Virus record (IMG/VR): IMGVR_UViG_3300047445_000292
DNA: 64,000 nucleotides
Source: an uncultured virus (IMG/VR IMGVR_UViG_3300047445_000292)
Lineage: Duplodnaviria > Heunggongvirae > Uroviricota > Caudoviricetes
Reading direction: 5' to 3' (one strand)
Part shown: positions 3,652 through 58,160 of the stretch, one piece after another
Layout of the letters: the number at the start of each line of letters is the position of its first letter
Position numbering within the stretch: the first letter of the stretch is position 1
Notes under the pieces: model-generated
Databases searched by the model: none
What the model was told of the DNA's origin: nothing
What the model saw: only the letters and a program-made list of their open reading frames with translations
Position numbers and translations under genes: made by a program

Positions 3652-4122
3652 ATGCGCATTCTCCCTGTCATCACCAGCCGCAACCCGAGCAGCCGCCCGG
3701 AAAACGACACGCTGCTGCACTGCTACGTCTGCCTGACGCGGGCCACGTTCAGCACGGCGGCGGCCACCGGCTGGACCTTCGACGCGGACGGTGAACCGTT
3801 CCGCACCTACTACTGCCCGAAGCACCGGCCCAAGGAAGGGAAGCGTTCGCGGGTGAACTTCAAGGTCACCCCGGCCGACCACAAACTGCTGGTCGCTATT
3901 ACCGTGCGCTACTGCGGGCGGTTCCACGATGCGGACCTGGAGGAAGCCGAAATGGATTTCACCGCCTGCCACCTGAACGGCTGCCCACTGGATCTGGCGG
4001 CGTGGTTTGCCGCCGACGACTTCAACTTCCTGCACGACGCCTGTGGCATCCGCGATCACCTCGACCGCAACACCGGGCGCCTCACCAACCACTTCCACCC
4101 ACGCTTCGCCCTGGAGCAATGA
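3652..4122 (+). CDS. Hypothetical protein; N-terminal Cys/His motif and DUF6874-like C-terminus
   Basis: C-terminal PLDL...ADDFNFLHD..GI..HLDRNTG.L...F.PRF pattern. Confidence 0.6.
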   Translation: MRILPVITSRNPSSRPENDTLLHCYVCLTRATFSTAAATGWTFDADGEPFRTYYCPKHRPKEGKRSRVNFKVTPADHKLLVAITVRYCGRFHDADLEEAEMDFTACHLNGCPLDLAAWFAADDFNFLHDACGIRDHLDRNTGRLTNHFHPRFALEQ

Positions 4123-4755: not shown

Positions 4756-4994
4756 CCATGCCAAGGCTTAACGTGAGTGTGACCCTCGACATTACGGTGG
4801 TTGACGAGGATGAGTTTCGCCTGGCCGCCCACAACAAGGCGGCCGAGGAAGGGGATCACGACCCCGGGCGCTTCATGCTGGTCGGGCAAACCAGCCTCGG
4901 CGAATGCGCGCAAATGCTGCTCGATCCGGGCTGCCTCATAGGGGCGAACATCGACCAGTCGAGCTACGAAGACCTTTATCTGCTGGAGGACTGA
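4752..4994 (+). CDS. Hypothetical small acidic protein
   Basis: ATG at 4752 or 4758 after GGAGG; 3' part of track ORF 4314..4994. Confidence 0.65.
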   Translation: MTMPRLNVSVTLDITVVDEDEFRLAAHNKAAEEGDHDPGRFMLVGQTSLGECAQMLLDPGCLIGANIDQSSYEDLYLLED

Positions 4995-4997
4995 GCC

Positions 4998-5219
4998 ATG
5001 TGGCAATGCCCGAAATGCAACGGTCACCACCTAAACGTGATGGTCACCACCACCGCCAAGTTGTTGCAGTACGAGGACAACTTTGAAACCGAGGTGGAAG
5101 GCGACCACGAATGGGGCGACACGTCGAACATGACCTGCGAGGAATGCGGGCACTGCGATGCGGCGCTGCACTTTGACACCGATCAAGACGAACCGAAACC
5201 GGAGGAACCGCAACCATGA
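4998..5219 (+). CDS. Small zinc-ribbon protein
   Basis: CPKC...CEEC motifs, acidic, GGAGG SD. Confidence 0.7.
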   Translation: MWQCPKCNGHHLNVMVTTTAKLLQYEDNFETEVEGDHEWGDTSNMTCEECGHCDAALHFDTDQDEPKPEEPQP

Positions 5220-5598: not shown

Positions 5599-6171
5599 AT
5601 GCACACCATCGAACTGTCCCGCAGTCAGGTCCAAAAACTGGTCGACCACTGCGCCAAACACGACCTCAAAACTTGGTTCGTCGGCAAGGACCACGGCGCC
5701 TACGTCGGCGCATCCGCCGGCAGCGAACCGGACCAGAAGTGCATCTACTACTTTCAGGGCTGCGACCCGAGCAAGGACAAAGACTTCTATGACACCGCCC
5801 ACGCCAAGTTCGGCGACGACTTCGGCGAGCGCATGCCGGTGGTCGACCTGCAGAAGGCGTTGGACAACCCCCAAATGCTCTGCGTGGAGGTCAAGGTGAC
5901 ATCGAAGTCGATCACGCTCGACGTGTTCGAAACCCCCGCGAATAAGACCTCCAACGCCGGCAGCGCCGCCGTGTACTACGGCGTGCGCAAACCCAACGGC
6001 AAGGTCGGCTGCGTCAAGAAGGACGGAGTCGAGGCGGTGCTGCTGGAACTCTGTGGCGGTGGGCAGACCACGGCACAGACCGCCAAGGCCATGGAAGCCG
6101 GTCGCGAACTGCGCGAGACGGGCAGCGTCACGGTCAAGGGCTACTGGATTGGCCCGCTGGGCGAGGTGTGA
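5599..6171 (+). CDS. DUF3085-like protein with C-terminal extension
   Basis: KDHGAY...Y..GCDP......FGDDFGE motif. Confidence 0.65.
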   Translation: MHTIELSRSQVQKLVDHCAKHDLKTWFVGKDHGAYVGASAGSEPDQKCIYYFQGCDPSKDKDFYDTAHAKFGDDFGERMPVVDLQKALDNPQMLCVEVKVTSKSITLDVFETPANKTSNAGSAAVYYGVRKPNGKVGCVKKDGVEAVLLELCGGGQTTAQTAKAMEAGRELRETGSVTVKGYWIGPLGEV

Positions 6172-6841: not shown

Positions 6842-6918
6842 GTAACCCCCCAAACCCCAAGGGCCAGCCAACTACCCCGGCAGGCCTAAACTTGCCTGTA
6901 GAAAGGAGAAACACCATG
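6842..6918 (+). repeat. Leader repeat copy B
   Basis: Matches 6367-6442. Confidence 0.85.
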
Positions 6919-7749
6919 CAACTGTCCCGTAACTTCGCTGCCAACGCCAACAGCCTGCGCAGCCATATCGCCCTGACCGACGACCAGATTTTCCGGGTCG
7001 CCCCCTCGATCTTTGCTCAGGAACCGCACGGTTCGCGCAGCGAACGTTATGCCTACATCCCGACCATCGACGTGCTCAACGGCCTGCGCAAGGAAGGCTT
7101 CGAACCCTTCGCCGTGGTGCAGTCCAAGTGCCGCCTGGAAGGCAAGAGCGAGTTCACCAAGCACATGATCCGCATGCGCCACGCCAACACCATCTTGGCC
7201 CCGCAGGCCAATGAGATTGTCCTGCTCAACAGCCACGACGGCACGTCGTCCTATCAGATGCTGGCCGGGTGTTTCCGCTTCGTCTGCCAGAACGGCATGA
7301 TTGCCGGCGACATCCTGGAAGACATCCGCATTGGCCACCGCGGCGACGTGATGGGCAACGTGATCGAGGGCGCTTACACCGTGCTGCAGGGCTTCGGCCT
7401 GGTCGACGAATCCCGCGAGGTGATGCAACAGACCCGCCTGAATTACGAGGAACAGGCGATATTCGCTCGATCGGCGCTGATGCTGCGCTACGACACCGAG
7501 GACGCCGGCAAGGCGCCGATCCAGGCCGACCAGCTGCTCAAGCCGCACCGCCGGGAAGACATGGGCACCGACCTGTGGTCCACCTTCAACGTCGTGCAAG
7601 AGAACGCCTTGAAGGGCGGGCTGCGTGGCCGCACGGCCAATAACCACCGTACCACCACCCGCGCCGTGACCGGCATCAGCCAGGACATGAAGCTGAACCA
7701 GGCGCTGTGGACGCTGGCCGAGGAAATGCGCCGGCTGAAAGCCGCCTGA
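6916..7749 (+). CDS. DUF932 domain protein
   Basis: SERY.YIPT..VL..LR.EGF.P, FTKHMIRMR, LLNSHDGTSSYQMLAG.FRFVC.NG, DLW.TFNV.QEN motifs. Confidence 0.9.
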   Translation: MQLSRNFAANANSLRSHIALTDDQIFRVAPSIFAQEPHGSRSERYAYIPTIDVLNGLRKEGFEPFAVVQSKCRLEGKSEFTKHMIRMRHANTILAPQANEIVLLNSHDGTSSYQMLAGCFRFVCQNGMIAGDILEDIRIGHRGDVMGNVIEGAYTVLQGFGLVDESREVMQQTRLNYEEQAIFARSALMLRYDTEDAGKAPIQADQLLKPHRREDMGTDLWSTFNVVQENALKGGLRGRTANNHRTTTRAVTGISQDMKLNQALWTLAEEMRRLKAA

Positions 7750-7827: not shown

Positions 7828-8457
7828 ATGACCAAGAAACTCTCCGACCCGGCCCTGCTAATCCCGGTCGAGCAACTGCCTGCCCTGCGTAAGCAGGCCG
7901 AAGAACAGGCGTTTGTTAACGTCGGCCGCTTGAACAGGGCAACCCGCAAGTCAGCAACCCTCGGCGATGACGCCCTGGAAATCGCCCGTCTGCCGCTGAG
8001 CCAGCGCATTCGCTACAACAAACTGGTGAAGCTGGTCGACGAAGCCAGTAAAGACATCATGCCGTTCACCGCCTGCCGCAAGGGCTGTAGCCACTGCTGC
8101 AACATCGCGGCGCTGATTACCGAGGTCGAGGCGCAGCGCATCAGCGAAGTGATCGGCCGCAAGCCGGCGAAGGTCGGCGCCTTTCCGCCGGACGTGCCGG
8201 CCCTGCAGGACAAATACTTCGGCGTGCCCTGCACCTTCTTGAAGGGTGGGCGCTGCTCGATCTACGAAGTGCGCCCGATCGCCTGCCGCGTGCATTTCAG
8301 CATGGCCGACGACGGGTTCTTCTGTTCCACGGCGATCGCCCCGCAGAACAGCCTGGTGCCGGCGCTCAACCTGCTCGGCGTCGACAAGGCGCTGTTCATG
8401 ATGACGATGGGGTCGAAGTTCGCCGACATCCGCGACTTCTTTCCGCCTAAGAAGTAA
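7828..8457 (+). CDS. YkgJ-family cysteine cluster (Zn/Fe-chelating) protein
   Basis: CRKGCSHCC...CTFL...CSIYEVRPIACR motif. Confidence 0.85.
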   Translation: MTKKLSDPALLIPVEQLPALRKQAEEQAFVNVGRLNRATRKSATLGDDALEIARLPLSQRIRYNKLVKLVDEASKDIMPFTACRKGCSHCCNIAALITEVEAQRISEVIGRKPAKVGAFPPDVPALQDKYFGVPCTFLKGGRCSIYEVRPIACRVHFSMADDGFFCSTAIAPQNSLVPALNLLGVDKALFMMTMGSKFADIRDFFPPKK

Positions 8458-8471
8458 ACCCGCGTTTCATG

Positions 8472-8513
8472 AACTCATAAATCACAATTCACATATATGA
8501 ATTGCGTATTCAT
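8472..8513. promoter_or_regulatory. Heptamer array 3 (degenerate) in the parA upstream region; candidate parS/operator
   Basis: AACTCAT-AAATCAC-AATTCAC at 8472-8492, inverted ATGAATT at 8497, TATTCAT at 8507; AT-rich; 70-110 bp upstream of the parA ATG. Confidence 0.65.
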
Positions 8514-8582
8514 GGCGCCCGCACTAGGCTCACCAGCGGTACTCTGTACCAATGGGTTTTAAGACTGGTGAGGGCCAATTTT

Positions 8583-9224
8583 ATGATTGTCGTCGTGGGC
8601 TCCAACAAGGGCGGGGTTTCGAAGACCACCACCTGCATAAATATTGCGATCGGCCTGACGCTTAGAGGTAAGGAAGTCATCGTGCTCGATGCTGACTTCC
8701 AGGGCAGCTTCGGGATCTGGAACGGCCACCGCGAAGAGGCCCAGCGCGAGCCGGTGATCACCATGGCGAACAAGTACGGCAACCTGGTCAACACCGTGGC
8801 CAGCCTGGCGAACAAGTACGAACACGTCCTGATCGACGTGGCTGGACGCAACAGTCAGGAACTGATCACCTCCATGGTCGTGGCGGACATCGTGATCGCC
8901 CCGCACCAGAGCGGGGATCTCGACATCGCCACGCTCAAGCAACTGCGCAAGCAGTACGCCGAGATTTCGCTGGCGAACCCGAAGCTGCGCGTGCTGATTT
9001 ACCAGACCATTGGCACCACCCACGCCAAGGGCAGGATCAAGGAACGGGCCGAGTTCCTTAAAGATTTGGCGGATTACCCCGAGTTCGAAGTGCTGAACAG
9101 CATCAGCCGGCACCGCCAAGCCTACAAAGACAGCGTTAAGCGGGGCCTGTCGGTGCTGGAGTACGACGACCCGCTGGCGAAAGAAGAAATCAACGATCTA
9201 TTGAATGAGGTGTTTCATGACTAA
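8583..9224 (+). CDS. parA: ParA-family partition ATPase (short, type Ib/ParF-like)
   Basis: Deviant Walker A NKGGVSKTT at the N-terminus, LDADFQGS, VLIDVAG; no N-terminal HTH. Confidence 0.9.
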   Translation: MIVVVGSNKGGVSKTTTCINIAIGLTLRGKEVIVLDADFQGSFGIWNGHREEAQREPVITMANKYGNLVNTVASLANKYEHVLIDVAGRNSQELITSMVVADIVIAPHQSGDLDIATLKQLRKQYAEISLANPKLRVLIYQTIGTTHAKGRIKERAEFLKDLADYPEFEVLNSISRHRQAYKDSVKRGLSVLEYDDPLAKEEINDLLNEVFHD

Positions 9225-11963: not shown

Positions 11964-12361
11964 GCATCATGGGGTACCCGTCACGCAACCAGCTCGACCT
12001 GTTTCCGCAGCCCGGGAACTACGAGGAAGTCCACGGCGACCTCTACGATCGGCGCACCGGCAAGCGCCTGCGCACCGGGTACCGTGACGTGTTCTACCAG
12101 ATCAACGACGGCCACCAACTGCGCGCCACGCTGCGCTTTCTGGAGGACGCCGTGGAAGGCCGGCGCTTCGTCTGCATCACCGACGAAGGCGGCGCGATCT
12201 GCAAGTGTTGTATCCGCTCGATGCTGCGCGACCTGCTCTATGGCATGCGCCACCCGCGCAGTTGTCTGTTGCGGGTGGTGTCCACCGAACACCGGTACTC
12301 AGAACCGTTGCGCTGTGATTGCTGCGACGACGAAATCCCGCCGATCGGGGACCGGCCATGA
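11960..12361 (+). CDS. Hypothetical Cys-rich protein
   Basis: CKCC and CDCC motifs; ATGA coupling at both ends. Confidence 0.65.
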   Translation: MSIMGYPSRNQLDLFPQPGNYEEVHGDLYDRRTGKRLRTGYRDVFYQINDGHQLRATLRFLEDAVEGRRFVCITDEGGAICKCCIRSMLRDLLYGMRHPRSCLLRVVSTEHRYSEPLRCDCCDDEIPPIGDRP

Positions 12362-12630
12362 ATACCCAGCCATTAGCCGCGCAGATCCTCACCACCTGTC
12401 GAAAAGCTCGGGGGGAGGGGCAGTACCTGGACATCGACTTTATGCTGCCCTCGGTGCTGTATAACCGCGGCGCCGGCACCGAGTTCCACTTCCGGGAAGC
12501 GGGGGCACAGAACCTGTTCGATTACTACCGCCCGGTGGCTGAACAGACCGGCTTGCCTATGAAAGACGTGCTGTTGTGGGCCGCGCAGGAATGGGATCTG
12601 TCCGGCAACCGTCTCGATCTTGTGCTATAG
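12358..12630 (+). CDS. Hypothetical protein
   Basis: ATG at 12358 overlapping the upstream stop. Confidence 0.6.
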   Translation: MNTQPLAAQILTTCRKARGEGQYLDIDFMLPSVLYNRGAGTEFHFREAGAQNLFDYYRPVAEQTGLPMKDVLLWAAQEWDLSGNRLDLVL

Positions 12631-12788
12631 CTTTTAGCCAGAAAAGAAACGCAGCACGTAGCGTAGTCGAATCTAATAGGTTTGCCTCGGCAATATCATT
12701 TTGTTGTCAAGGGCTTGAATTTAATTGAAAGACTAGGCAACGTACTGCCCACGGACTATCTGGCAACACAATAACTAGGGGGCCAAGA

Positions 12789-13388
12789 ATGGCTTTAAAT
12801 ACAGGATCAGGGTTCAGCAATCTGACGCGAATGGAATCCCAAATACAGGCCGTGATAGCCACTTATGTAGCAGATCCCACCCCTAAAAATCAGCCCTACG
12901 TTTCCAAGAAAAAAGAAGCCAGGCGCCAGCGAGAGGAACAGGAACGGCAGCTAGCTTTGCTACGTTCAACCCCGCTAGATCAGTTAGATTTTGTCCCACT
13001 AAATTCCGAACCTACTCAAGCCGCTACGGCCCAGTCCGAGTTAGCCGAGCTTGAGCAGCAGATGCGTATCGCGTTAGGGATTGACGTAGTCAAGCCTACC
13101 GAAGTCGCCAAGGCTAAACCCAAATTAGCCGCGAAACCGATAGCTCCAAAGCCCCAAGTTACCGCCAAGCCCCGCGTTGAATTGCACATCGTCAAGCGCA
13201 CGGTCGAGGTGCTACTGCGCATCAAACGTCCTGACGGTTTGGAACTCCCGTTCTTCCACGAAGCCACCGAAGGCAGCCGGCTTGAAGCCGAGTTAGCCGC
13301 CGAGCGCCAGGCGCGTGACTACGGGTTCAAGGTCTTGGGTCATATACAAACCACCATCAAAGAACAGGCTCTGGATCACTGTTCTTAA
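12789..13388 (+). CDS. Hypothetical protein with Lys/Pro-rich linker, atypical codon usage
   Basis: 199-aa ORF after an AT-rich intergenic region. Confidence 0.65.
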   Translation: MALNTGSGFSNLTRMESQIQAVIATYVADPTPKNQPYVSKKKEARRQREEQERQLALLRSTPLDQLDFVPLNSEPTQAATAQSELAELEQQMRIALGIDVVKPTEVAKAKPKLAAKPIAPKPQVTAKPRVELHIVKRTVEVLLRIKRPDGLELPFFHEATEGSRLEAELAAERQARDYGFKVLGHIQTTIKEQALDHCS

Positions 13389-13447
13389 CCCACCAAATGT
13401 CTGCATGGGCTGCCGTATTGGCGGCCCATTCTGTGTGCGTATAAGGG

Positions 13448-13828
13448 ATGTTCATGTCTAAATTATCAGAGTTTCGCGCAGCGGAAATAGAGCTGGGCAA
13501 ACAACTTGCGGCCCTTGAAGCGCTGCGAAACGATTCAGCACTAAAGATGGAGATAGCATTTGAGTCGGCGCTAACAAAACTACTAGATGACTTCGGCCTG
13601 TCCCGTGACACGTTGCTAGACATCCTCGGTGCTAGCCCTGCCCAAGCCGCTAAGTCGTATGAGGTCCCAGGCAAGACACGTAAGACGTTGAAGCGTGAGA
13701 TTCCCAAGACTTTTCTCAACCCGCACACCGGTGAAAAGATCACGGTGAAACGTCTCACCAACGGCAAATATCGGGGATGGGTTGAAAAGCACGGCGAAGT
13801 GATCGTGCAAAGTTGGCTGCAAGAATAA
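13448..13828 (+). CDS. MvaT/MvaU-family (H-NS-like) protein 1
   Basis: MSKLSEFRAAE..L..QL..LE.L..D..LK.E..FE..L N-terminus and NPHTGE....W..KHG...VQSW C-terminus; start may be 13454. Confidence 0.9.
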   Translation: MFMSKLSEFRAAEIELGKQLAALEALRNDSALKMEIAFESALTKLLDDFGLSRDTLLDILGASPAQAAKSYEVPGKTRKTLKREIPKTFLNPHTGEKITVKRLTNGKYRGWVEKHGEVIVQSWLQE

Positions 13829-13858
13829 GTCCGGCGCTAATTCAAGACTAAGGAAGTT

Positions 13859-14263
13859 ATGATGTTTGAGAAAATTGCCCAGTACACTGCGGCGGAATTA
13901 GCGCTGGCCAAACAAGTCACCGCTTTAGAAGAACTCAAGAACGACCCCGAGTTGAAGCGAGAGTTAGAATTCAACTCAGAGTTAGAGACCCTGCTGCTCA
14001 GGCATTCGTTCAGCAAAACTAAGCTGCACAGTTTCCTTGGGGCGCAGCTAGGTGCCGTCCAGGCCGCTGAAACGAAGGCTCCCCGCGCAGCCAAAGAGAA
14101 AGACAAAGATAAAAAGTACGCCAAGCACACCAACAAACTCTGGTCCAACCCGCACACCGGGGAAACTGTGTTGTCCCGCCGTCGCGATCACAAGACGTTG
14201 TTGAAGTGGACCGAAGAACATGGTCTGGAAGCGGTGATGTCTTGGATGACGCCGACCAACTAA
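13859..14263 (+). CDS. MvaT/MvaU-family (H-NS-like) protein 2
   Basis: LKNDPELKRELEF..EL and NPHTGE....HKTL.KW..EHG.EAV.SW. Confidence 0.9.
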   Translation: MMFEKIAQYTAAELALAKQVTALEELKNDPELKRELEFNSELETLLLRHSFSKTKLHSFLGAQLGAVQAAETKAPRAAKEKDKDKKYAKHTNKLWSNPHTGETVLSRRRDHKTLLKWTEEHGLEAVMSWMTPTN

Positions 14264-14282
14264 CCTTTCTCTGAGAAATCAC

Positions 14283-14513
14283 ATGGAAGCGAATCAACAC
14301 CTGGCGATCTGGACCGTGATCGCCAACCCGGCGGACTACCCCGGGCTGTTTGTAGCCCGCAAGTGGCTGATGGTCGAAGGCAGGGAGGTACCCACCAATG
14401 AAGTGGTGGTCGGCCTGACCTTGCAGGCTGTGCGCGAGCAGATCCCGATCGGCCTGCAGTGGATGCCCCGGTCTCCCGACGATGATCCGGTAATTGTGGA
14501 GACTTGGTTTTGA
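14283..14513 (+). CDS. Hypothetical phage protein
   Basis: 76 aa, PADYPG.FVAR...RSPDDDPVIVETW. Confidence 0.7.
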   Translation: MEANQHLAIWTVIANPADYPGLFVARKWLMVEGREVPTNEVVVGLTLQAVREQIPIGLQWMPRSPDDDPVIVETWF

Positions 14514-14968
14514 ACAGCATCGACGATGTACTGGCCCGTGCACGCGCCGCCCTGCAGAACTCACCCACCAACAGCTCGCCGTTCAAGGTGATGCCCGCGC
14601 CCGTTCCGGGACCTGTCCCACGCCCCGGTCAGCGGAACGCTCCGCGAATCCCCAAGGAACTGCGGGTCGACTCGCGGGCAGCGGACAAGTTCGTGGTGCG
14701 CATGCCGGACGACCTGCGCGCACGGATGGCGCGGTTTGCCAACCAGCACAGGCGCAGCTGCAACTCCGAATGCGTCGAAGCCATGTATTGGTGGCTGGAT
14801 CGGCAAGAGCTGATGTGGCTGATGCTGCAAGGCATCGAGCGCGAGCTGGCGCGGCAGGAAGTCCTGCGCCAGGGTGAGGAATTGAAGGCGCTGGACGACA
14901 TCGCCCAGCGTCAACCCGAGACCGCCGCCCTCATCAAACAATTGAAGGCGATGATCAGCCTGGGCTAG
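14510..14968 (+). CDS. Arc-family RHH regulator, AmrZ-like
   Basis: SRAADKFVVRMPDDLR......A....RS.NSE motif; TTG start at 14510 or 14504. Confidence 0.85.
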   Translation: MNSIDDVLARARAALQNSPTNSSPFKVMPAPVPGPVPRPGQRNAPRIPKELRVDSRAADKFVVRMPDDLRARMARFANQHRRSCNSECVEAMYWWLDRQELMWLMLQGIERELARQEVLRQGEELKALDDIAQRQPETAALIKQLKAMISLG

Positions 14969-15183
14969 TCGGTGGAAGCGCTGCGTTCCGCGACTTGCGC
15001 ACGCAGCGCGTCGGCCTGATGGTCATTCAGGAAGCCGTGAAACAGCAGGAACTGAATGCAGGTCTGCGCCCGGCCCGTGTTCGAATTACTCTCCCAGGCG
15101 CCATTGGTGGCGTGGGCTTCCGGCCACGGCTTGACCTTCTTGGTTGGGGCAGGTGTTGGGGGATTGCTCACGGCGTTCTCCAT
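14965..15183 (-). CDS. Hypothetical protein (lone antisense gene)
   Basis: 72-aa ORF filling the gap, convergent stop overlap with the Arc gene. Confidence 0.5.
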   Translation of the reverse strand: MENAVSNPPTPAPTKKVKPWPEAHATNGAWESNSNTGRAQTCIQFLLFHGFLNDHQADALRAQVAERSASTD

Positions 15184-15311
15184 GCCCGCAACGGGCGTCG
15201 GCTGTAAAGAGGGAAGGGCACAAGCCCCTTCTTAGTGTGGCATCGAATCCAGAATATCTAACCTCTCTACTACGCTCAGGGTATCCAAGACGCCCAAGTA
15301 GAGGTGCCCCG

Positions 15312-15572
15312 ATGCAAATCCAAGAACTGCGTGCGCTGTTGTTGAAAGGCGTGGTCCGCATAGTCTTTCTGAAAACCGATAACAGCGAGCGCACGTTGCT
15401 CGCGACCTTACACCCGTCCCGCATGCCGCCCCCACCCGTTGCCGCACCAGGCACAGGGGGCCGTCCGCTGCCCGAAGGCAACCTGCTGGTGTGGGACACC
15501 GAAGCCAAAGGCCTGCGCAGTTTTATCGTCGGCTGCCTGCTGGAAGAACCGGTACTCATTGAGGAACTTTGA
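15312..15572 (+). CDS. WYL_2/SH3 beta-barrel-like protein
   Basis: GVV.I.F.K.D...R...ATL...VWD.EAKG.RSF motif; GAGGT SD. Confidence 0.75.
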   Translation: MQIQELRALLLKGVVRIVFLKTDNSERTLLATLHPSRMPPPPVAAPGTGGRPLPEGNLLVWDTEAKGLRSFIVGCLLEEPVLIEEL

Positions 15573-17468: not shown

Positions 17469-17720
17469 ATGAATCCGCATTTCCTTCCTACGACCGGCGA
17501 AAAACTGACTGACGACGAACGCCTTTTGTTCATCCGTCACATCATCGAAAAGCACAACCTCTCCCATGTCGACCTGGCTCGTTTCACTGGGTATGCCCGT
17601 GACAGCGTGTCCGGTTGGCTCACGGAAAAGACCTCGCCACGCTATCGCGCCGTGCCTGTCCGGGCGTTCGACCGCCTGCTCGACCAATTGCAACTGGGCA
17701 AAGTCAAGGGCAGCAAGTAA
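17469..17720 (+). CDS. Small HTH DNA-binding protein, Aca1-like pattern
   Basis: IIEKHNLSHVDLARFTGYARDSVSGWL HTH followed by YRAVP. Confidence 0.75.
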   Translation: MNPHFLPTTGEKLTDDERLLFIRHIIEKHNLSHVDLARFTGYARDSVSGWLTEKTSPRYRAVPVRAFDRLLDQLQLGKVKGSK

Positions 17721-17734
17721 GCGGGGGCGGGGCC

Positions 17735-20560
17735 ATGTATCACTACTATCAGCGCTCGGAACATGACGCTTGGTTTCTGCTCTCCAGCCAGGGGGAAGAG
17801 AACCCGGTGGAGCTGGCCAAGGCGCAGGGCGCAAAGAAACTCACCATCCTCGCGCTGAACCAGATGGTCAACGATGGCACCGAGGCCGAGTTGCCGCGCA
17901 ACCGCGACAAGATCGGTTACCGTGGCCCGCTGTACTTCGACATCGACTGCAAGGACGACCTCGGCCAGGCCATCACCAGCGGGCAGGAACTGGTCGGCAA
18001 GTTGTCCCGCATGGGCGTGCCGAAACACTGCATCGAAATCTTTCTCTCGGGCAGCAAGGGCCTTCACGTCCTGGTCAACGAAAGCCTGTTCGGTGCCCGC
18101 CGCTTCACCCTGCGCTTGCCCGAAATCTACAAGGAAATGGCCCGCGACCTGTTCGTGATCGGCCTCGATTACTCGGTGTACAGCAGCGGCCGGGGCAACA
18201 GTTTCCGCATCGTCAACCTGCAACGCCATGACGGCAAGTACCGGGTGCCGGTGAGCGCCGAGGAACTGGAACAGCTGACAGTGGACGGCTACCGCGAGCT
18301 GGTGAAGGCGCCCCGCGTGGTGGAAGTCGACGACCCGCAGGGGTTGGTGGTGCATGAACTCAAGGCCATGTTTGAAGAGGCCAAGAAGCGCGTCAACGCC
18401 AAGCCGAAGTTGGTGATCATCGCGTCATCCGCCGACATGGAAGCGATCCGCGAGCCGGTCCCGACCTGCATCCAGATGCTGTGCGACAGCGATTCGTTGA
18501 AGGCTGATGCGTCCTACAACCAGGCCGCGACCCAACTGGCCGCCTACATCGTGCGGGCCGGGGTGTCGCAGACGGTGAGCGAAAGCCTCGCCGCCCGGCT
18601 GGCCAGCAGCGCCAAGTCGAGCAAGTACAACACCGCCAAGTTGCGCCGCGATCACATCGAGGCGCAGATCCGCTACGTCGAACACACCTCGACGTTCAGC
18701 TTTGGCTGCAACGCGATCCGCGCCCTGCTCAGCAAGCGCCCGTGCGAAGGCTGCGCGATCGAGGCCGGAGCGAACAAGGGCGGCGATCAGGACGCTGGCC
18801 TGTGCGCCGTGGTGGAACCGGACGGGTATTACATCCGCCTCGGGGACGGCAAGCGGCGCATCAGCAACTTCACCCTGTCGCCGATCGACGTGTTCATTGA
18901 CGTACCGCAGGACGGCACCGCCCCGCGCCGGGTCGGCACCCGCATGGCGGTGATGAAGGACGGCAACGAGCTGTCCAAGATCATTTTCAAAGAGGCGGCG
19001 TTTTCCGGCCGCTCGGCGTTTCTGAAAGAACTGGAAGGCCTCACTGACCTGACGTTTCAGGGGTCCGACTTGGAGATTCAGAAAATCAAACTCGCAATTT
19101 TCCGGGAGGCACAGGACGTGGGAGAAATTTTCCAGGTCTACACCGCCGGGGTTCACATGGACTTCGTCGACGACATCCCGCTGTTCACCTATGTCGAACC
19201 CGACATGTCGGTGAACACGGTCAAGGTGCGCGGCACCCACCAGTTCCTCGGCAACCTGGTCGCCCGCCCGTACTTTGCGCACACCACCATGCCCGAGCGA
19301 GCGGACCAAGACGTGGACAAGACCCTCGACAACCTGTTCAAAATCAACCAGAAACACGAAGTCGGTATGCTGATCGGCTGGAGCATCGCGGCGCATTTCA
19401 AGACGCACCTGATGTACCTCTACAGCCAGTTTCCGGTCCTTTGCCTGTGGGGCAGCGCCGGTTCCGGCAAGTCGAAGACCGCTGGCCTGATCACCTGGCT
19501 GAACGGCACCGACTACATGCTCAAAGACTCCGGGGTCAGCGCGCCATCGACCTCGCCCTACGGCATGCTGGACTACCTGTCGAGCACCACCACGGTTCCG
19601 CGGATCATCGAAGAATTCAACAAGTCCAAGATGACTGCCCATGCCTACAAGGACGTGGGTGAGCGGATCAAGCAGGCCTGGAACGCCGAGTCGACCCTGA
19701 AAGGCCGTCTCGGCCGGAGCAGCTTGGGCCGCACCGGCGCCGAAGCGGTGGCCATCCCGCTGTCCTCGCCGCTGGTGGTGATTTCTGAACAAGAAATTGA
19801 AATCCCGGCGATCCAGGAACGCAGCATTCGTGTCCACCTGACCAAGCAGAAGCGTGGCAAGTGCCGCGAGCCGTTCTTTACAGCCAGCGAGGGACGCAAC
19901 CACCTGCGCCGGCTGGGCAAGGCGATCATGGCCAAGGCACTGACCACCACCCCGGAAGAAATCGAGGCGCTGATGAACAAGGCGTCGGCCCTGTTGCCTC
20001 GGGACATGGACGATCGCCCACGCTACTCGCAGCAGGTGGTGCTGATCGGGCTTTGGCAATTGCAGGCGGTGTGCGAAGAACTGCACCTGTTCCAGTCGCT
20101 GAAAACCTTGGGGCCAATCATTGACACGGTGATCGGCCGCTTCGATGCCCCGGACCAAGGTTATGTGCAGAGCGAAATCGACCTGGTGCTGCAAAAGCTC
20201 GCGATCATCGTGGCCATTTCACGCAGCGTGCAGGAAGCGGGGCAGGGCTACGTGCATCTGGTCGAGGGCCTACACTACTCGGTAACCCCGGAATACTTGA
20301 TCCTCGACCCGGTGCTGGGTCACGCCGCCTACACCCGCTATTGCACCGTCGAGGAACGCACCTCACCCGTGATCAGCAGCGGGGCGCAGTTCACCAAGCT
20401 GATCAACGAAGAACCCTACTTCATCAAGTACGCGCCATACGCCGGGTTGGGCGGGGGCCGAGCGATGCTCTACCTGTCACTCAAAGAAATGCAGGGGAAG
20501 AACATCGACACCAGCCTGCTCGGCTGGGAGGGCGGTTATGAACGCACCGACTTTAGCTGA
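17735..20560 (+). CDS. AEP primase - helicase fusion
   Basis: AEP motifs LYFDID and SGSKGLH; Cys cluster PTC...GC...CEGC; Walker A GSAGSGKS, Walker B IIEE. Confidence 0.85.
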   Translation: MYHYYQRSEHDAWFLLSSQGEENPVELAKAQGAKKLTILALNQMVNDGTEAELPRNRDKIGYRGPLYFDIDCKDDLGQAITSGQELVGKLSRMGVPKHCIEIFLSGSKGLHVLVNESLFGARRFTLRLPEIYKEMARDLFVIGLDYSVYSSGRGNSFRIVNLQRHDGKYRVPVSAEELEQLTVDGYRELVKAPRVVEVDDPQGLVVHELKAMFEEAKKRVNAKPKLVIIASSADMEAIREPVPTCIQMLCDSDSLKADASYNQAATQLAAYIVRAGVSQTVSESLAARLASSAKSSKYNTAKLRRDHIEAQIRYVEHTSTFSFGCNAIRALLSKRPCEGCAIEAGANKGGDQDAGLCAVVEPDGYYIRLGDGKRRISNFTLSPIDVFIDVPQDGTAPRRVGTRMAVMKDGNELSKIIFKEAAFSGRSAFLKELEGLTDLTFQGSDLEIQKIKLAIFREAQDVGEIFQVYTAGVHMDFVDDIPLFTYVEPDMSVNTVKVRGTHQFLGNLVARPYFAHTTMPERADQDVDKTLDNLFKINQKHEVGMLIGWSIAAHFKTHLMYLYSQFPVLCLWGSAGSGKSKTAGLITWLNGTDYMLKDSGVSAPSTSPYGMLDYLSSTTTVPRIIEEFNKSKMTAHAYKDVGERIKQAWNAESTLKGRLGRSSLGRTGAEAVAIPLSSPLVVISEQEIEIPAIQERSIRVHLTKQKRGKCREPFFTASEGRNHLRRLGKAIMAKALTTTPEEIEALMNKASALLPRDMDDRPRYSQQVVLIGLWQLQAVCEELHLFQSLKTLGPIIDTVIGRFDAPDQGYVQSEIDLVLQKLAIIVAISRSVQEAGQGYVHLVEGLHYSVTPEYLILDPVLGHAAYTRYCTVEERTSPVISSGAQFTKLINEEPYFIKYAPYAGLGGGRAMLYLSLKEMQGKNIDTSLLGWEGGYERTDFS

Positions 20561-22939: not shown

Positions 22940-23018
22940 GCCTCACGGCTAGCTGTGTTTGCTGGCGGGCGGTTGCCCGCCAGCACTCTCTCTTGTCGTC
23001 CGAGGAATGGGGTGCAAC

Positions 23019-26000
23019 GTGAAACTGAATGGACTTGCTCTGCTCGATGTGCGCGGCTTGCTGCTGCATGCCTACCACCGGGGCACTGACCCCGATGCCA
23101 AACTCAGCCCCCTGACTGACAAGCCGGTGAACTCGGCCGGCTATGGTCTGCGTGGCTTCCTCGATACCTACATCATCCCCCTGCTGTCTGATTTCTCCCC
23201 CCTCAACATCATCGCGGTGTGGGATGGGGGTAACACCTACCGCGAAGGCCTGTTCGCCGACTACAAAGCCAAGCGTCACGCCGAGGAAAAAGACCCGGCG
23301 GTTGAGGCTCAGCTGAAAAAGATGTTCGACATGGCCAAGGCGCTGCTGGCCTATGCCGGCGCGTTCAACGTGCATGTCCAGGGCGTGGAAGCGGACGACG
23401 TGATCGGCGCCTTCTGCCGGCAGTTTCCCGACGTGCTCAAGCTGGTGCACACCGTGGACCGCGACCTGTCGCAGCTCAACGACGACAACACCACGGTGCT
23501 GGTCAAGAACATGCCGGCCGACGACTTCGAAGGCTACGCGACCCGCTGGGTGCGGCTCTACAAGTCCCTGGTGGGGGACAAGACCGACGAATACGGCGGT
23601 GTGCCCCAAGTCGGGCCGAAGGCGTTTGAATACCTGGTCAGCGAATACGGCTGGGACGGCATGGAACAGCTGGAAGCCTGCGTGGCCAGCAACGACTACG
23701 CCTTCCTGCTGCAAGCGGCCGAGGCCACCGGCTGCAAGGTGCTGCGCAAAATCTACGAGAGCCGCAGCACTTGGCGCCTGATGTACACCCTCGCCGGTCT
23801 GCACCCGGAACTGCTGTATGGCACGCAGGGCCGCATGATCATCCGCCCGGAGTGGTACGTGCGCCTACCGGACGCGACCAAGGTGAAGGACCTGCTGACC
23901 ATGGCCGGCGACCCGAGCCTGTTCGAACACTTCGCCCCGCACATGCCGAGCATGACCCTGGTGACGCCAGAGAACTGGCCGCAGGTGCATGCCGCCTACG
24001 TCACGGGCTTGCAGGACACGCCGCTGGCCAGCTTCGACTATGAAACCTATGACAGCCTCGGGCACGACTGGACGCCGGCCCTGCCGGACACCGCCCGCGG
24101 CTACGTCGACGTGCTGTCGCAGCGCTTGACCGGCGGGTCGTTCACCTACGGGTCGAATTTGCAGCACACGTTCTACCTGCCGGTGCTGCACAAGAACACG
24201 GCCAACCTGGATCAGGGCGAGCTGGTCAACGTGCTGCTCGACATCGAGGAAGCCGGCCTGGACTTCGTCGCGCACAACGCCCGGTTTGAAGAACAAGTGA
24301 CCAAGCAGTGCCTGAATTTCCAGCTCGACGGCCCGGTCTGCACGCAGATGCTCGGCAGCTACGTCGACGAGAACCTGGAGCAGGGCTTGAAGGCGCACGC
24401 CCGGCAATGGTTGAAGTACGACCAGGTCGAGTACAAGGACCTGCTGGCCCGGCACGGCGCCCGCGACATGCGCGACCTCACCGGCGAGCAGGTGACCCAT
24501 TACGCCTGTGATGACAGCTTTGTCGCGGCGCGCTTGGCCACCCTGTTCTGGCTGATCCTCAAGCTGGAAAACCAGTGGAAGTTCGCCTACGAAGAGGATC
24601 GCTACACCGTCCACCCGTTCAACCGGAGCTTTGAAACCGGGGTGCGCCTCGGCTTCGACCGCCTGCAGGAGCTGGCCACCACTGACGCCGAGGCGGTCCA
24701 GACCAAGACCGCACGGTTGCACGGCCTGCTGGCCGAGCATTGCAGCCAGATCAGCATCGTCGGCGCCGAGTTCATGAAGAAAGCCGAGGCCGACAACCTG
24801 CTCAAGCTGTACATCCACGACAAGTTGAACCGTTCGCAGGCGCAGGCCAAGGTGGCCGAGGCCTACGAACGCTGGCGGCTGGGCTCGGTGTACACCCCTT
24901 ACCGCGAGACCTTCACCCCGGCCGAGTTCATCGCCACGGAGAAGGGGTTCACCCGCGTGGCCGAGAAGGTCGGGCTGCCGATCGTGATGGAGAGCGTCAG
25001 CGGCAAGGCCATCACCGCCTGGCTGATGTCCAGCCAGCACCACCTGAAACAGCACGGCAGCACCGACCCGCGTGCGCGCCAGCTGGTGGAGCTGGTGCAG
25101 GAAGCCGCCGGGGAAATCCGCAAGCGCGAGGGCGCGGCGTTCGTGACCTTGAAGCGGTTCATCGAAACCGAGGTACTGCACCTGGACGGCGTGCGCGTGA
25201 TCGAGGGCGACGAACTCAACCTCAACAGCCCGAAACAGATGCAGGAACTGCTGTATTGCAAGCTGCAATTGCCCGTGCGCCTGCGCACCTCCCCGCAGAA
25301 GGGCAGCCGCCGTGATGAACTGGGCCTGGAAGGCAACCCCTCGACCAACGAAGACGCGATGCTCGCCGCGATGGCCGAGGACTGCCCGGAAGGCGATTGG
25401 CGCCGCGAGGTGTTGCAGCTGCTGATCGACACCAAAGAGTGCATGACCCGCCAGTCCCTGTATTACAACAAGTACCCGCACTGGCAGCACCCAAGCACCG
25501 GCGTGGTTCACCCTGGCACCCGCAACTGTGGGACGAAGACCCGCCGCCCGGCTGGCTCCAGCCTGAACATCCTCGCGGTGAGCAAAGGCCCGCTGCGCTC
25601 GATCTTTCTGCCGCGCTACAAGGGGAATGTGGTCGTCTCCCTGGACTTTTCCGGGCAGGAACTGCGCCTGGCTGGCAGCGCGGCCCGCGACCCGGTGCTG
25701 ATCGAGGCCTACACCGGTGGCGGCACTTACGTCGACGAAGACGGCATGACCCGCGCACTGTTCAAGGACATCCACAGCGTGACCGGCTGCACCTTCGCCG
25801 CCAACGTGCTGGAGCAGGCGATGGGGCCGGAAATCCTCAAGCGCCTGTCGTTCGATGCGTCCGGCTCGATGGACTATGAACAGTTCGTCAGCCTGCTCAA
25901 GGAAGGCGAGCACGTCTATGAACTGGTCGGCGACCTCGCGCTGCCGCTGGGCAAGGCGATCATCAAGATCCGCAAGATGGCCAAGACCGTGAACTTCCTG

Positions 26001-26585
26001 ATCATCTACGGTGGCCAGGCGTTCAGCATGGGCATGAAACTCGGGGTTCCCGAGCGCTTTGCCCAGCGCATCATGGACGGCGTGTTCGCCGGCTACCCAC
26101 GCCTGGCGCCATGGCAGAAGGAAACCGTCGAGCTGGCCAAGCGGCAGGGCTACATCACCACTGCCTTCGGTACCCGCAAGCATGTCGACCCCAACATTCT
26201 CAGTCGCGACGGCTCGCTGCGGTCGCGGGCTGAGCGTCAAACCGTCAACCATGAGATTCAGGGCTGCGCCGCTGACATCCTGAAAGTGGTGCTGACCTCG
26301 GCCCACCACACCCACCTCTACGAAGAAACCCGCGCCCACCTGATCGCCCCGGTGTACGACGAACTCGTTAACTCGGTGCCGATCGACAACGTCTTCGAAT
26401 TCGCCTCGCGTGCCCAGGACCTGATGAACCTGACGCCACCAGGGCACCCGATCCCGATGCTGGCCGAGGTGTCGATCGGGCGGAACTGGCACGACTCAGG
26501 GAACAACGAGCTGGGCGATCGTCCTTCGCAGCGGAAAATTGAAGGGCTGTTCGACAAATGGATGAAAGAGGGGTGGGCAGCATGA
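23019..26585 (+). CDS. polA: Family A DNA polymerase with 5'-3' and 3'-5' exonuclease domains
   Basis: EADDVI and LVGDKTD (5' nuclease); DYET, HNARF, YACDD (proofreading); DFSGQELR, RKMAKTVNFLIIYG, VYDE (polymerase motifs A/B/C). Start approximate. Confidence 0.92.
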   Translation: MKLNGLALLDVRGLLLHAYHRGTDPDAKLSPLTDKPVNSAGYGLRGFLDTYIIPLLSDFSPLNIIAVWDGGNTYREGLFADYKAKRHAEEKDPAVEAQLKKMFDMAKALLAYAGAFNVHVQGVEADDVIGAFCRQFPDVLKLVHTVDRDLSQLNDDNTTVLVKNMPADDFEGYATRWVRLYKSLVGDKTDEYGGVPQVGPKAFEYLVSEYGWDGMEQLEACVASNDYAFLLQAAEATGCKVLRKIYESRSTWRLMYTLAGLHPELLYGTQGRMIIRPEWYVRLPDATKVKDLLTMAGDPSLFEHFAPHMPSMTLVTPENWPQVHAAYVTGLQDTPLASFDYETYDSLGHDWTPALPDTARGYVDVLSQRLTGGSFTYGSNLQHTFYLPVLHKNTANLDQGELVNVLLDIEEAGLDFVAHNARFEEQVTKQCLNFQLDGPVCTQMLGSYVDENLEQGLKAHARQWLKYDQVEYKDLLARHGARDMRDLTGEQVTHYACDDSFVAARLATLFWLILKLENQWKFAYEEDRYTVHPFNRSFETGVRLGFDRLQELATTDAEAVQTKTARLHGLLAEHCSQISIVGAEFMKKAEADNLLKLYIHDKLNRSQAQAKVAEAYERWRLGSVYTPYRETFTPAEFIATEKGFTRVAEKVGLPIVMESVSGKAITAWLMSSQHHLKQHGSTDPRARQLVELVQEAAGEIRKREGAAFVTLKRFIETEVLHLDGVRVIEGDELNLNSPKQMQELLYCKLQLPVRLRTSPQKGSRRDELGLEGNPSTNEDAMLAAMAEDCPEGDWRREVLQLLIDTKECMTRQSLYYNKYPHWQHPSTGVVHPGTRNCGTKTRRPAGSSLNILAVSKGPLRSIFLPRYKGNVVVSLDFSGQELRLAGSAARDPVLIEAYTGGGTYVDEDGMTRALFKDIHSVTGCTFAANVLEQAMGPEILKRLSFDASGSMDYEQFVSLLKEGEHVYELVGDLALPLGKAIIKIRKMAKTVNFLIIYGGQAFSMGMKLGVPERFAQRIMDGVFAGYPRLAPWQKETVELAKRQGYITTAFGTRKHVDPNILSRDGSLRSRAERQTVNHEIQGCAADILKVVLTSAHHTHLYEETRAHLIAPVYDELVNSVPIDNVFEFASRAQDLMNLTPPGHPIPMLAEVSIGRNWHDSGNNELGDRPSQRKIEGLFDKWMKEGWAA

Positions 26586-53320: not shown

Positions 53321-54526
53321 TTACAGTGTGAGTGTCATCACCTTGAAGGCATCGGTATAAAGGCTGTGGGTGATTTCGCCATAGTCCACACGGAACGCCG
53401 TGGCGCGACGGAGCACGAACTGCTCGATCGCGCTGTACTGGGCGCTGATGTTGATCACGCGGCGCAGGGCGAAGCGGGTATCGAGGCCAACAAAAGTGTT
53501 GGTCGCGATCACGCCGTCATCGACGATCAAGATCCGTGGATCTGGACCGGTCAGGTTGTCGACGGTGATGCCCTGGTTGAACGCCTCGGCTTCCTTGATG
53601 AACACGGTGTCGCGAGTCGGCTTGCCGGTACGCGCTTCGATGGCCATCGCGGTGTCCAGATCGCAAATACCGCCCAAGGTCATCATCTGGCGACGATTCT
53701 TGTGCATGTACTTGACCCACGCCTTGTGGGTCATCTGGCCTGCGGCAGTGATGCCGGCAGGGTCGAGCGAGTCAGCGGTGAAGCTGGTCTTGGCGGTCTC
53801 ACCACGGTCCACGTCGCCGGCAACGATCGCCGCGATGTCACCTTCAACCATGCGCACACGCTCTTGGCGGGCTTGTGCGGTCATGGCCAGGTTGACCAGA
53901 TCCAAGGTGGAAGCCTGAGCAGCCTGGTCGGAAATCAGCAGGCCGATCGACTTGGTTGGGATGCTGTTCGAACGATCCGAGGTGGTGATGCTCAGCATCA
54001 CGTCCGGTTCAGCGAGCTGCGCGATCGGAGACGACGCAGTGCCTTGCGGGCGGGTGATGTTGATGATCGGCTGATCGAACTTCGGCCCGGTCACCGTCTG
54101 AGTCTGAGCGATGAAACTTGCCCAGGTGCCCAGCAGGTCGCCGTAGTCGTCGCGCAGCTTCGACTCGATGGCGCGCATCAGGATTTCCGGGTACAGCATG
54201 CGGCCGGCCACGGTGTGGCGGTCGGAACCGTCACCCCGGGTGATCGAGCCGAGCTGAATGCCGGTTTCCAGCATTTCCTTCATGCTCGGTGGACGCATGC
54301 CCATCCGGTGGTCAGTGCTGGTGAGCATGCCGGAGTGCAACATGGCCTGTTGCAATACGTCGCCGTATTTCACCAGGTCGGTGCTTTCGCCGTACAGCTG
54401 GTTCAGGTGCTGGGACAGGGACAAGCCCTTGGCCGAGGCTTCCGCGTACATCTGGACGTGGAACGGCACCTCGATCAGGTTCCCTTCCGCGTTGCGCACC
54501 TTGAGGTTGGTCTGCATATCACTCAT
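53321..54526 (-). CDS. Major capsid protein
   Basis: About 400 aa following the protease and decoration genes; HK97-like C-terminal pattern. Confidence 0.8.
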   Translation of the reverse strand: MSDMQTNLKVRNAEGNLIEVPFHVQMYAEASAKGLSLSQHLNQLYGESTDLVKYGDVLQQAMLHSGMLTSTDHRMGMRPPSMKEMLETGIQLGSITRGDGSDRHTVAGRMLYPEILMRAIESKLRDDYGDLLGTWASFIAQTQTVTGPKFDQPIINITRPQGTASSPIAQLAEPDVMLSITTSDRSNSIPTKSIGLLISDQAAQASTLDLVNLAMTAQARQERVRMVEGDIAAIVAGDVDRGETAKTSFTADSLDPAGITAAGQMTHKAWVKYMHKNRRQMMTLGGICDLDTAMAIEARTGKPTRDTVFIKEAEAFNQGITVDNLTGPDPRILIVDDGVIATNTFVGLDTRFALRRVINISAQYSAIEQFVLRRATAFRVDYGEITHSLYTDAFKVMTLTL

Positions 54527-54559
54527 TTCAAATTCCCCCAAAACTATGTGGTTGGGCGC

Positions 54560-58134: not shown

Positions 58135-58160
58135 AAAAAACCCGCAATACTCAGGGGTTT
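58135..58160 (-). terminator. Possible weak terminator after the large terminase
   Basis: Minus strand AAACCC-N11-GGGTTT-TTT. Confidence 0.35.

Follow-up and report, generated by a model that had tools for sequence, protein, structure and literature searches.

Two adjacent genes of an uncultured tailed phage encode paralogues of the MvaT/MvaU family of xenogeneic silencers in which the assembly domain has been kept and the loop that reads DNA has been rebuilt. The genes, termed P1 and P2, lie in tandem on the plus strand of a 64,000-nucleotide stretch of viral DNA that was analyzed over its full length (IMG/VR record IMGVR_UViG_3300047445_000292; 'the window' below). The explanation that is tentatively favored here is that the two products are co-expressed silencer paralogues that would enter MvaT-type oligomers and bring to them a redesigned, still basic DNA-contact head. 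MvaT and MvaU act as master silencers of foreign DNA in pseudomonads, and the only phage countermeasure named in the literature that was found is the protein Mip; a phage pair of this construction represents a natural experiment on which parts of a silencer are needed for interference.

An earlier examination of the window, made from its letters and open reading frames (the 'sequence-only reading'), had described P1 and P2 as adjacent, diverged members of the MvaT family, and profile searches firmly established that assignment. Both products passed the cut-off (75 bits) of the NCBIfam model NF041859 ('MvaT/MvaU family'), with scores of 88.6 bits for P1 and 80.5 bits for P2; both matched phrog_34034, and their E-values against family models ranged from 1e-22 to 3e-25. 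The Pfam model MvaT_DBD (PF22055) was passed by P2 (32.3 bits, against a gathering score of 27), with P1 remaining under that score at 17.8 bits. The corresponding genes in related viral records behaved similarly, with both copies of relative G001 passing the NF041859 cut-off, along with six of the eight copies in relatives G002-G005 (the other two falling just under it, at 74.3 and 72.1 bits). P1 and P2 are 36% identical to one another, and are 29% and 34% identical, respectively, to P0082, a family representative that matches the MvaT domain of PDB entry 2mxe at every position of its C-terminal domain.

Structural models were in agreement with the profile matches. AlphaFold models generated with orthologue alignments as input (mean pLDDT 75.6 for P1 and 80.4 for P2) displayed the same layout in both proteins, consisting of two N-terminal helices (residues 3-25 and 28-46 in P1; 2-27 and 30-48 in P2), a disordered linker and a beta-beta-alpha-alpha domain. 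The modeled C-terminal domains superposed on 2mxe with TMt values of 0.84 (P2) and 0.79 (P1) and a root-mean-square deviation of 1.4 A, across 45 and 43 columns, and the HMMER alignments of both proteins to 2mxe were free of gaps, with NPHTGE, W107 and the SW pair in register; the earlier proposal that the residues responsible for the fold are retained was thereby upheld. Mean net charges of the N-terminal domain, linker and C-terminal domain were -2.35, +4.4 and +3.05 in the P1 clade and -3.0, +3.19 and +1.52 in the P2 clade, and were -1.39, +2.69 and +2.87 in 75 canonical representatives of the family, so that the electrostatic layout of a silencer is evidently kept in both clades.

In MvaT itself, an 'AT-pincer' composed of R80 and of G99-N100 from loop 2 occupies the minor groove; the individual alanine substitutions R80A, N100A, K105A and K108A each abolish repression of cupA, binding to DNA falls by a factor of more than 10 with R80A or K108A, and K83 is required for the fold (Ding 2015, PMC4466236). 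Alignment to 2mxe demonstrated that the canonical loop KGGNH (K97-H101) is replaced by KRLTN in P1 and by RRRDH in P2, as had been suspected from the sequence, and further indicated that the loss extends well beyond that loop. R80 is replaced by glutamate in P1 and histidine in P2, N100 by threonine and aspartate, and K108 by valine and threonine; K105 is arginine in P1 and leucine in P2, and K83 is lysine in both. The AT-pincer is therefore missing from both proteins, and the lysine network, in which K105 and K108 are required for function, is changed at both of these positions in P2 and at the second in P1, which stays basic at the first. Viewed in terms of the four residues that are required in vivo, P2 differs from MvaT at all four and P1 at three (E, T and V). 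Residue N105 of P1, located one position further on, was considered as a stand-in for N100 and was rejected: the corresponding column contains histidine in 11 and asparagine in 9 of 20 orthologues.

The replacement loops are the best conserved part of the C-terminal domain, with little or no variation among orthologues that otherwise share only 52-60% identity. In sets of 27 P2-type and 20 P1-type sequences (the window's own included), residues S106, R108, R109, D110 and H111 were found to be invariant across the entire P2 clade, the members of which are as little as 52% identical to the P2 of the window, and residues T97, K99 and R100 were invariant across the P1 clade, accompanied by L101 in 17 of the 20 and by glutamate at the position of R80, again in 17. 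Mean pairwise identity in loop 2 (0.82 in the P2 clade and 0.73 in the P1 clade) exceeded that of the C-terminal domain (0.68 and 0.67), of the linker (0.47 and 0.43) and of the N-terminal domain (0.80 and 0.71). Both genes had uninterrupted reading frames in all relatives, free of internal stops and in conserved synteny, and the new loops are, as judged from these alignments, evidently under purifying selection. That the domain is folded and basic and has new residues that do not vary speaks for a change of function rather than its loss; and the exchange of the pincer prongs and part of the lysine network for invariant, arginine-rich loops therefore suggests that the phage subunits contact DNA differently.

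The tandem arrangement of the two genes is conserved as well. A search using the P2 clade alignment located the tandem pair at six of seven viral loci, and each of the four near-complete close relatives of the phage (three rated 100% complete and one 89%; terminase large subunit, TerL, 84-94% identical) harbors exactly two copies, which are adjacent to one another. A more distant relative that is 90% complete (TerL 44% identical) contains no copy of the pair; two additional relatives, G006 and G007 (TerL 94% and 85% identical), are fragments that do not reach the locus and were left out of this count. P1-type and P2-type matches furthermore occur on contigs of equal size in at least 10 metagenome cases, and have adjacent locus tags in one NCBI record.

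The retention of N-terminal oligomerization helices, also part of the sequence-only reading, was substantiated both by the modeled helices and by phmmer matches of P1 and P2 to the TurB structures 8h8h and 5b52 (E-values from 4e-8 to 6e-6; the N-terminus of P1 gave 3.7e-8 and 7e-8, respectively). TurB's terminal dimerization site consists of a set of hydrophobic residues (L4, A5, F7, A10, A13, L14, M18, L21, L24, G29, L30 and I34) and a set of salt-bridge residues (R3, R8, D27, E33 and E37), and the R8A substitution impairs both homo- and hetero-oligomerization; TurA and Pmr, which both hetero-oligomerize with TurB, keep four and three of the five salt-bridge residues and eight and seven of the 12 hydrophobic residues, respectively (Vasileva 2026, PMC13141940). 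P1 retains R8, D27, E33 and E37 (R3 having become lysine) and is identical at eight and similar at three more of the 12 hydrophobic positions, a degree of retention at least equal to that of TurA and Pmr; R8 and an acidic residue at position 37 are present in all 20 members of its clade. P2 keeps two of the five salt-bridge residues, D27 and E33 (with R3 replaced by lysine, R8 by threonine and E37 by asparagine), is identical at seven and similar at four more of the hydrophobic positions, and belongs to a clade in which the proline at the helix break is invariant (27 of 27). Both proteins retain F36 and have leucine in place of M44, these being the positions altered in the F36D/M44D mutant that yields a dimer-only MvaT (Qin 2020, PMC7039000).

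Over its first 50 residues P1 reaches 58% identity to chromosomal homologues, as compared to 23 of 50 positions against P2, and the top 12 chromosomal matches to this region all belong to Pseudomonas or Metapseudomonas, with several falling in the P. fluorescens group. These comparisons point, indirectly, to P1, at least, as a protein that should be able to enter host-type oligomers, and to a probable difference in partner preference between P1 and P2.

The boundaries of the genes and the arrangement of their expression were read from the sequence. The full open frames extend over 13448..13828 and 13859..14263 (both on the plus strand), corresponding to 126 residues for P1 from its alternative ATG at 13448 and to 134 residues for P2 from ATG 13859 (the numbering of P2 residues used here follows the 134-residue form). 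The likely starts are nevertheless the second ATG codons, at 13454 and 13862, because the orthologues begin with MSK... (P1-type) and MF(E)K... (P2-type) and because a Shine-Dalgarno-like site precedes each of these codons. Within positions 12300-15300 no terminator-like site was found on the plus strand (all seven were on the minus strand) and no sigma-70-like promoter was found, compared with 1.2 expected, for which reasons co-transcription of P1 and P2 is likely. Three antisense frames (13357-13767, 13837-14157 and 14019-14564, all on the minus strand) were taken for shadows rather than genes, the matches to protein families and PHROGs being to the plus-strand genes, which were the frames scanned at this locus.

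A mechanism consistent with these results can be outlined. The pair is situated upstream of the replication genes, among the small genes of the plus-strand arm, in what is probably an early region, and each product keeps the MvaT layout, with an acidic, two-helix oligomerization domain joined by a flexible linker of basic character to a C-terminal DNA-contact domain that is likewise basic. The N-terminal helices would assemble P1 with P2, and P1 in particular probably with host MvaT/MvaU (or TurA/TurB-type) proteins, so that the entry of P1 (and of P2) into host filaments appears to be the likeliest first step. The resulting mixed filaments would then display a changed affinity or changed targets, and the likely net effect would be a weakening or redirection of xenogeneic silencing in the infected host. 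We infer from sequence comparisons that the phage proteins associate with host proteins and that the new loops bind DNA, and likewise when the genes are expressed and in which direction silencing is shifted; the net effect could be counter-silencing, retargeting or extra silencing, all of which the sequence accommodates.

The sequence-only reading had proposed either that the pair forms a dominant-negative anti-silencing system or that it binds DNA with a new specificity. The first proposal survives in part, in that P1 and P2 are indeed MvaT paralogues that possess assembly helices and no AT-pincer; its DNA-dead sense is less likely, given the invariant loops, the full fold and the basic domain. 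The second proposal appears to fit the data better, and the two are not mutually exclusive.

The distribution of pincer-less proteins was surveyed using a profile built from the two clades, which recovered 578 representative proteins (E <= 1e-3) among 1.84 billion; the best 150 were analyzed, of which 141 align through the C-terminal domain, in a sample that leans towards the phage proteins from which the profile was built. N100 is kept in 87 of these 141 representatives and missing in 54; considered together with R80, both residues are present in 75 and neither in 36, with R80 alone found in 18 and N100 alone in 12. In a quick tree (124 columns, with 76 of 138 inner branches unsupported), the only clade used was one with an SH-aLRT value of 98, which unites the P1 and P2 representatives within a group of 13 proteins, 11 of which lack N100 and 12 of which lack R80; the 10 members that were looked up derive from metagenomes only. 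Further pincer-less clades exist, including one in which loop 2 reads ANILK. None of the several pincer-less clades is characterized, as far as the literature search shows, and their presence among the 54 pincer-less representatives therefore makes it probable that the family reads DNA in more than one way.

Two side observations bear on this distribution. Proteins of the sample that have lost R80 tend also to have lost N100 and to have isoleucine or valine in place of K108 (36 of the 141 have neither R80 nor N100, and position 108 is isoleucine or valine in 34), which suggests a second, uncharacterized mode of DNA contact in the family. Separately, the ANILK clade, which has no arginine at position 80, is represented by single genes on two IMG/VR contigs of 46.6 and 21.9 kb (L096, 2489-2905, and L097, 2235-2651), such that the origin or spread of pincer-less MvaT-like proteins among viral contigs was not a single event.

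Chromosomes, plasmids and previously catalogued phages yielded canonical forms. All 80 chromosomal loci that were kept (one genome per species, from Pseudomonas, Metapseudomonas, Marinobacter and a few others) carry R80 and the motif [KR]GGN[HN], with an identity to P2 that nowhere exceeds 40%; no copy closer than 40% identity was found in one genome each of 185,579 species, scanned with patterns that lean towards canonical sequences, and none closer than 34% in 72,556 plasmids. MvaT homologues are matched by 150 plasmid records, 132 of them from Pseudomonas, and the four copies inspected (including Pmr of pCAR1) all keep the canonical loop. A tblastn search of 50,697 GenBank phage records with P1 and P2 returned two matching records, both uncultured and both with a canonical loop.

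A scan of IMG/VR with a canonical MvaT profile identified 57 loci and 58 open reading frames, with the G-N pair kept in 55 of the 58; within flanks of 1.5 kb these loci contain one copy each, except for L133, which has two matches, and many of these contigs, being predicted prophages, may contain some host sequence. The viral census accordingly consists of two scans that lean in opposite directions, one built from the pincer-less clade and the other from canonical proteins. A different group of large IMG/VR contigs, of 105-107 kb (L104-L106, with L157 and L158), encodes a canonical MvaT homologue that is 64-69% identical to P0082, the reference protein of the scan, and two of the three harbor a second, more diverged copy approximately 45 kb away.

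Several points weigh against the favored explanation of P1 and P2 as oligomer-entering paralogues with a redesigned head: (i) P2 is without the R8-E37 salt bridge, with R8 present in none and an acidic residue at 37 in four of the 27 members of its clade, albeit that the same pair is also missing in 32 of 75 canonical representatives, partly through N-terminal alignment gaps; (ii) the pincer-less loops in 54 of 141 representatives demonstrate that the trait is not confined to this phage; (iii) the patterns used for the chromosomal scan and the canonical viral scan favor canonical sequences, so that the contrast with P1 and P2 is partly built in; (iv) the assignment of the host, probably Pseudomonas, draws only on GC content, best similarities and the range of the family; and (v) the phage, at 62% GC, is not obviously AT-rich relative to pseudomonads, and the pressure to escape silencing may therefore be weak.

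The strongest competing explanation, which we nevertheless consider doubtful, is that the pair organizes or regulates the genome of the phage itself, by timing its early genes, by autoregulation, or by quieting an episomal prophage in the manner of Sfh or Pmr. Under such a scheme the proteins would use the redesigned loops to coat or bridge specific phage DNA, with early promoters of higher AT content and the locus of the pair itself as candidate targets, and P1, P2 and the conserved gene directly upstream do form the GC minimum of the window and contain three of its five most AT-rich 150-bp stretches. P1 is 50.7% GC (54% at third codon positions, GC3) and P2 is 52.3% GC (GC3 67%), compared with GC3 values of 70-90% in neighboring genes, and the low GC of the block is old and maintained, since synteny has persisted among orthologues as little as 52% identical. 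A gene for a ParA-like ATPase and another for an Arc/ParG-like protein are located nearby and may point to an episomal stage. In addition, none of five related records contains a tyrosine integrase, and all three complete relatives contain one or two small serine recombinases (Resolvase domain; frames of 201-268 residues), a combination compatible with an episomal lifestyle. The scan for this family covered the related records, of which the partial, nearest one (G001) yielded no such recombinase, and the role of these enzymes could be dimer resolution, inversion or another activity.

The frequency of MvaT homologues on Pseudomonas plasmids would likewise be in keeping with an own-genome role, as would the reviews that describe a stealth model for Sfh and co-regulation for Pmr. 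However, a stealth or backup paralogue has to recognize the DNA that the host protein binds and therefore keeps the canonical motif, and this was so in all four of the plasmid copies inspected, whereas P1 and P2 have replaced it. A resident form is moreover absent from sequenced isolates at the identity thresholds given above for species genomes and plasmids, and the direct terminal repeats of two complete relatives, along with a dedicated DNA polymerase, primase and helicases, are features more usual for virulent phages.

Less likely again, and in our estimation unlikely, is that P1 and P2 are pure, DNA-dead poison or cap subunits (a dominant negative in the strict sense) that terminate or detach host filaments as H-NST does with H-NS. 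Such an activity would account for the loss of residues whose change to alanine abolishes MvaT function and for the high conservation of the N-terminal domain, and P2, lacking the R8-E37 bridge needed for oligomerization of TurB, could be a chain terminator; moreover, the entry for MvaT in a review table, 'truncated derivatives: unidentified' (PMC6936261), leaves that role without a known occupant. A pure poison, however, has no need of a C-terminal domain, and H-NST has none, whereas P1 and P2 have it at full length, with a good fold in the models, a basic charge and invariant new loop residues, all of which argues for a positive function. The terminal site of P2 is also not obviously defective, given its invariant helix-break proline and the 11 of 12 hydrophobic positions at which it is identical or similar to TurB.

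It is more improbable still that the pair adds silencing to host DNA, for example to AT-rich defense islands or resident prophages, as has been proposed for the H-NS of phage EPV1. The complete silencer architecture and charge layout are kept, phage-encoded H-NS provides a precedent (PMC7074111), and canonical homologues of MvaT are common among the viral contigs of IMG/VR (the 57 loci noted above); the residues that have been lost are, however, the very ones on which MvaT-type silencing of AT-rich DNA depends, and nothing links the new loops to AT-rich targets. Decay of a captured host gene into functionless copies, which the atypical GC3 of the two genes might have suggested, is practically refuted by frames intact in all relatives, by synteny, and by a motif that is invariant down to 52% identity.

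The favored explanation, in which P1 and P2 join MvaT-type oligomers with an altered DNA-contact head, can be extended to a more specific and rather unlikely proposal, according to which the two proteins found a phage-borne, pincer-less branch of MvaT that operates as a two-subunit, full-length counter-silencer, with P1, through its host-like, TurB-type terminal site, docking on host filaments and P2, which has no R8-E37 bridge but an arginine-rich RRDH loop, capping or re-aiming them. If that were true, the phage would reprogram host xenogeneic silencing from inside the filament, and the pair would constitute the first paralogue-type antagonist known for MvaT.

Features of the pair, of the window and of related records (coordinates in the window unless a record is named)
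Feature	Position	Strand	Basis or remark
P1, MvaT/MvaU-family paralogue, 124 aa	13454..13828	+	open reading frame; NF041859; phrog_34034, E 1.2e-22
P2, MvaT/MvaU-family paralogue, 133 aa	13862..14263	+	open reading frame; NF041859; Pfam MvaT_DBD
P1 N-terminal oligomerization domain, residues 1-58, TurB-type terminal dimerization site	13454..13627	+	phmmer to TurB structures
P1 loop 2, codons 99-103, KRLTN, replacing MvaT K97-H101 KGGNH	13748..13762	+	alignment to 2mxe
P2 loop 2, codons 107-111, RRRDH, replacing MvaT KGGNH	14177..14191	+	alignment to 2mxe
Shine-Dalgarno-like AAGGGA	13443..13448	+	5 nt before P1 start 13454; read from sequence
Shine-Dalgarno-like AAGGAAG	13850..13856	+	in 30-nt P1-P2 spacer, 5 nt before ATG 13862; read from sequence
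Conserved upstream gene, 199 aa, GC 53.2%, GC3 56%	12789-13388	+	directly upstream of P1
Arc-like ribbon-helix-helix protein, 154 aa	14504-14968	+	240 nt downstream of P2; also matches ParG-like partition PHROGs
DUF6874	3652-4122	+	Pfam
DUF3085	5599-6171	+	Pfam
DUF932	6892-7749	+	Pfam
CxxCxxCC zinc/iron domain	7828-8457	+	Pfam
ParA-like ATPase	8502-9224	+	Pfam
Small genes of no assigned function, then replication block	85 to ~32.4 kb	+	
Primase	17615-20560	+	replication block
DNA polymerase	22959-26585	+	replication block
Helicases and SbcCD-like nuclease		+	replication block
Portal, head protease, tail proteins, endolysin	within ~32.4-63.5 kb	-	
Tape measure, 2218 aa	42655-49311	-	
Major head protein	53321-54541	-	
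Terminase large subunit	58159-59964	-	
Serine recombinase locus in relative	G002:C1:73218-73667		
Serine recombinase locus in relative	G003:C1:32863-33315		
Serine recombinase locus in relative	G004:C1:80489-81578		

The remainder of the window is that of a tailed phage (62% GC), with a terminase, portal, major head protein, 2218-residue tape measure, DNA polymerase and primase, and the genome of the phage is approximately 82 kb in size. The same proteins are present on metagenome contigs of 82-83 kb and on IMG/VR records of 81.7-84.4 kb, three of which are rated 100% complete and two of which possess direct terminal repeats. Megablast searches of 50,697 GenBank phage records with 1.9 kb and with 19.4 kb of the window returned zero matches; its TerL is 33% identical to the terminases of Pseudomonas phages Lana, PMBT3 and UAntarctica. 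No tRNA genes were found in the window.

The conserved gene upstream of P1 encodes a product with no Pfam or PHROG match, for which the ESM Atlas returned only unnamed, mostly viral clusters, and a homologue precedes the pair in relative L004 (1771-2535). The set of DUF6874, DUF3085, DUF932, CxxCxxCC and ParA-like genes listed in the table is more usual in the leading regions of plasmids or integrative and conjugative elements than in phages. Downstream of the pair, a frame at 15144-15572 (plus strand) matches the Pfam family WYL_2 in its C-terminal part (28.0 bits, against a cut-off of 26.7); its orthologue in L004 is only 87 residues long (4842-5105), and the real gene therefore probably starts at an internal methionine.

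A literature search, outside the scope of which subscription journals mostly lay, found no description of phage-encoded MvaT paralogues without the AT-pincer. The three MvaT groups defined in Ding 2015 (Fig. 7) and in Vasileva 2026 (Figs 4 and S2) might already show pincer-less members. One review names only H-NS and Lsr2 as silencer homologues of phages (PMC7074111), and another reports that four uncharacterized MvaT/U paralogues of P. alcaligenes share the AT-pincer (PMC6936261); a 'phage-related MvaT-like' gene has also been noted in island PFGI-2 of P. fluorescens Pf-5 (PMC2647930).

Among systems that have been described, the closest in construction are the host silencers themselves. MvaT and MvaU of P. 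aeruginosa and TurA and TurB of P. putida (PDB 2mxe/2mxf, 5b52 and 8h8h) are similar to P1 and P2 in family, two-helix domain, basic linker, C-terminal fold and size of loop 2; they differ in that they are chromosomal rather than a phage-encoded, adjacent pair, and, with respect to MvaT, in that R80, G99-N100 and K108 have been replaced in both phage proteins and K105 in P2 as well. Pmr of pCAR1 and Sfh of R27-type plasmids are, like P1 and P2, full-length silencer paralogues found on mobile elements, and Pmr hetero-oligomerizes with host TurA and TurB, as is proposed for P1; Pmr, however, keeps R80 and TKGGNH and shares its binding regions with the host proteins, whereas P1 and P2 have replaced those residues and come as a pair.

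H-NST of pathogenic E. coli resembles P1 and P2 as a silencer-derived protein, one that has been proposed to disturb the oligomerization of the host silencer, but belongs to the family of H-NS proper and has no DNA-binding domain, whereas in P1 and P2 that domain is present, conserved and basic. Mip (gp4 of Pseudomonas phage LUZ24) is a phage protein aimed at MvaT (PMC4635203, PMC8501957), and MvaT therefore matters to Pseudomonas phages; Mip is described as a 'non-related interaction partner' of MvaT (PMC6936261), and it is by that description, not by sequence, that it is set apart from the paralogues P1 and P2. Finally, the H-NS of phage EPV1 and the canonical viral MvaT homologues resemble P1 and P2 in being silencer-family genes in viral genomes, the canonical homologues being single-copy within the 1.5-kb flanks that were fetched and P1 and P2 occurring as an adjacent pair.

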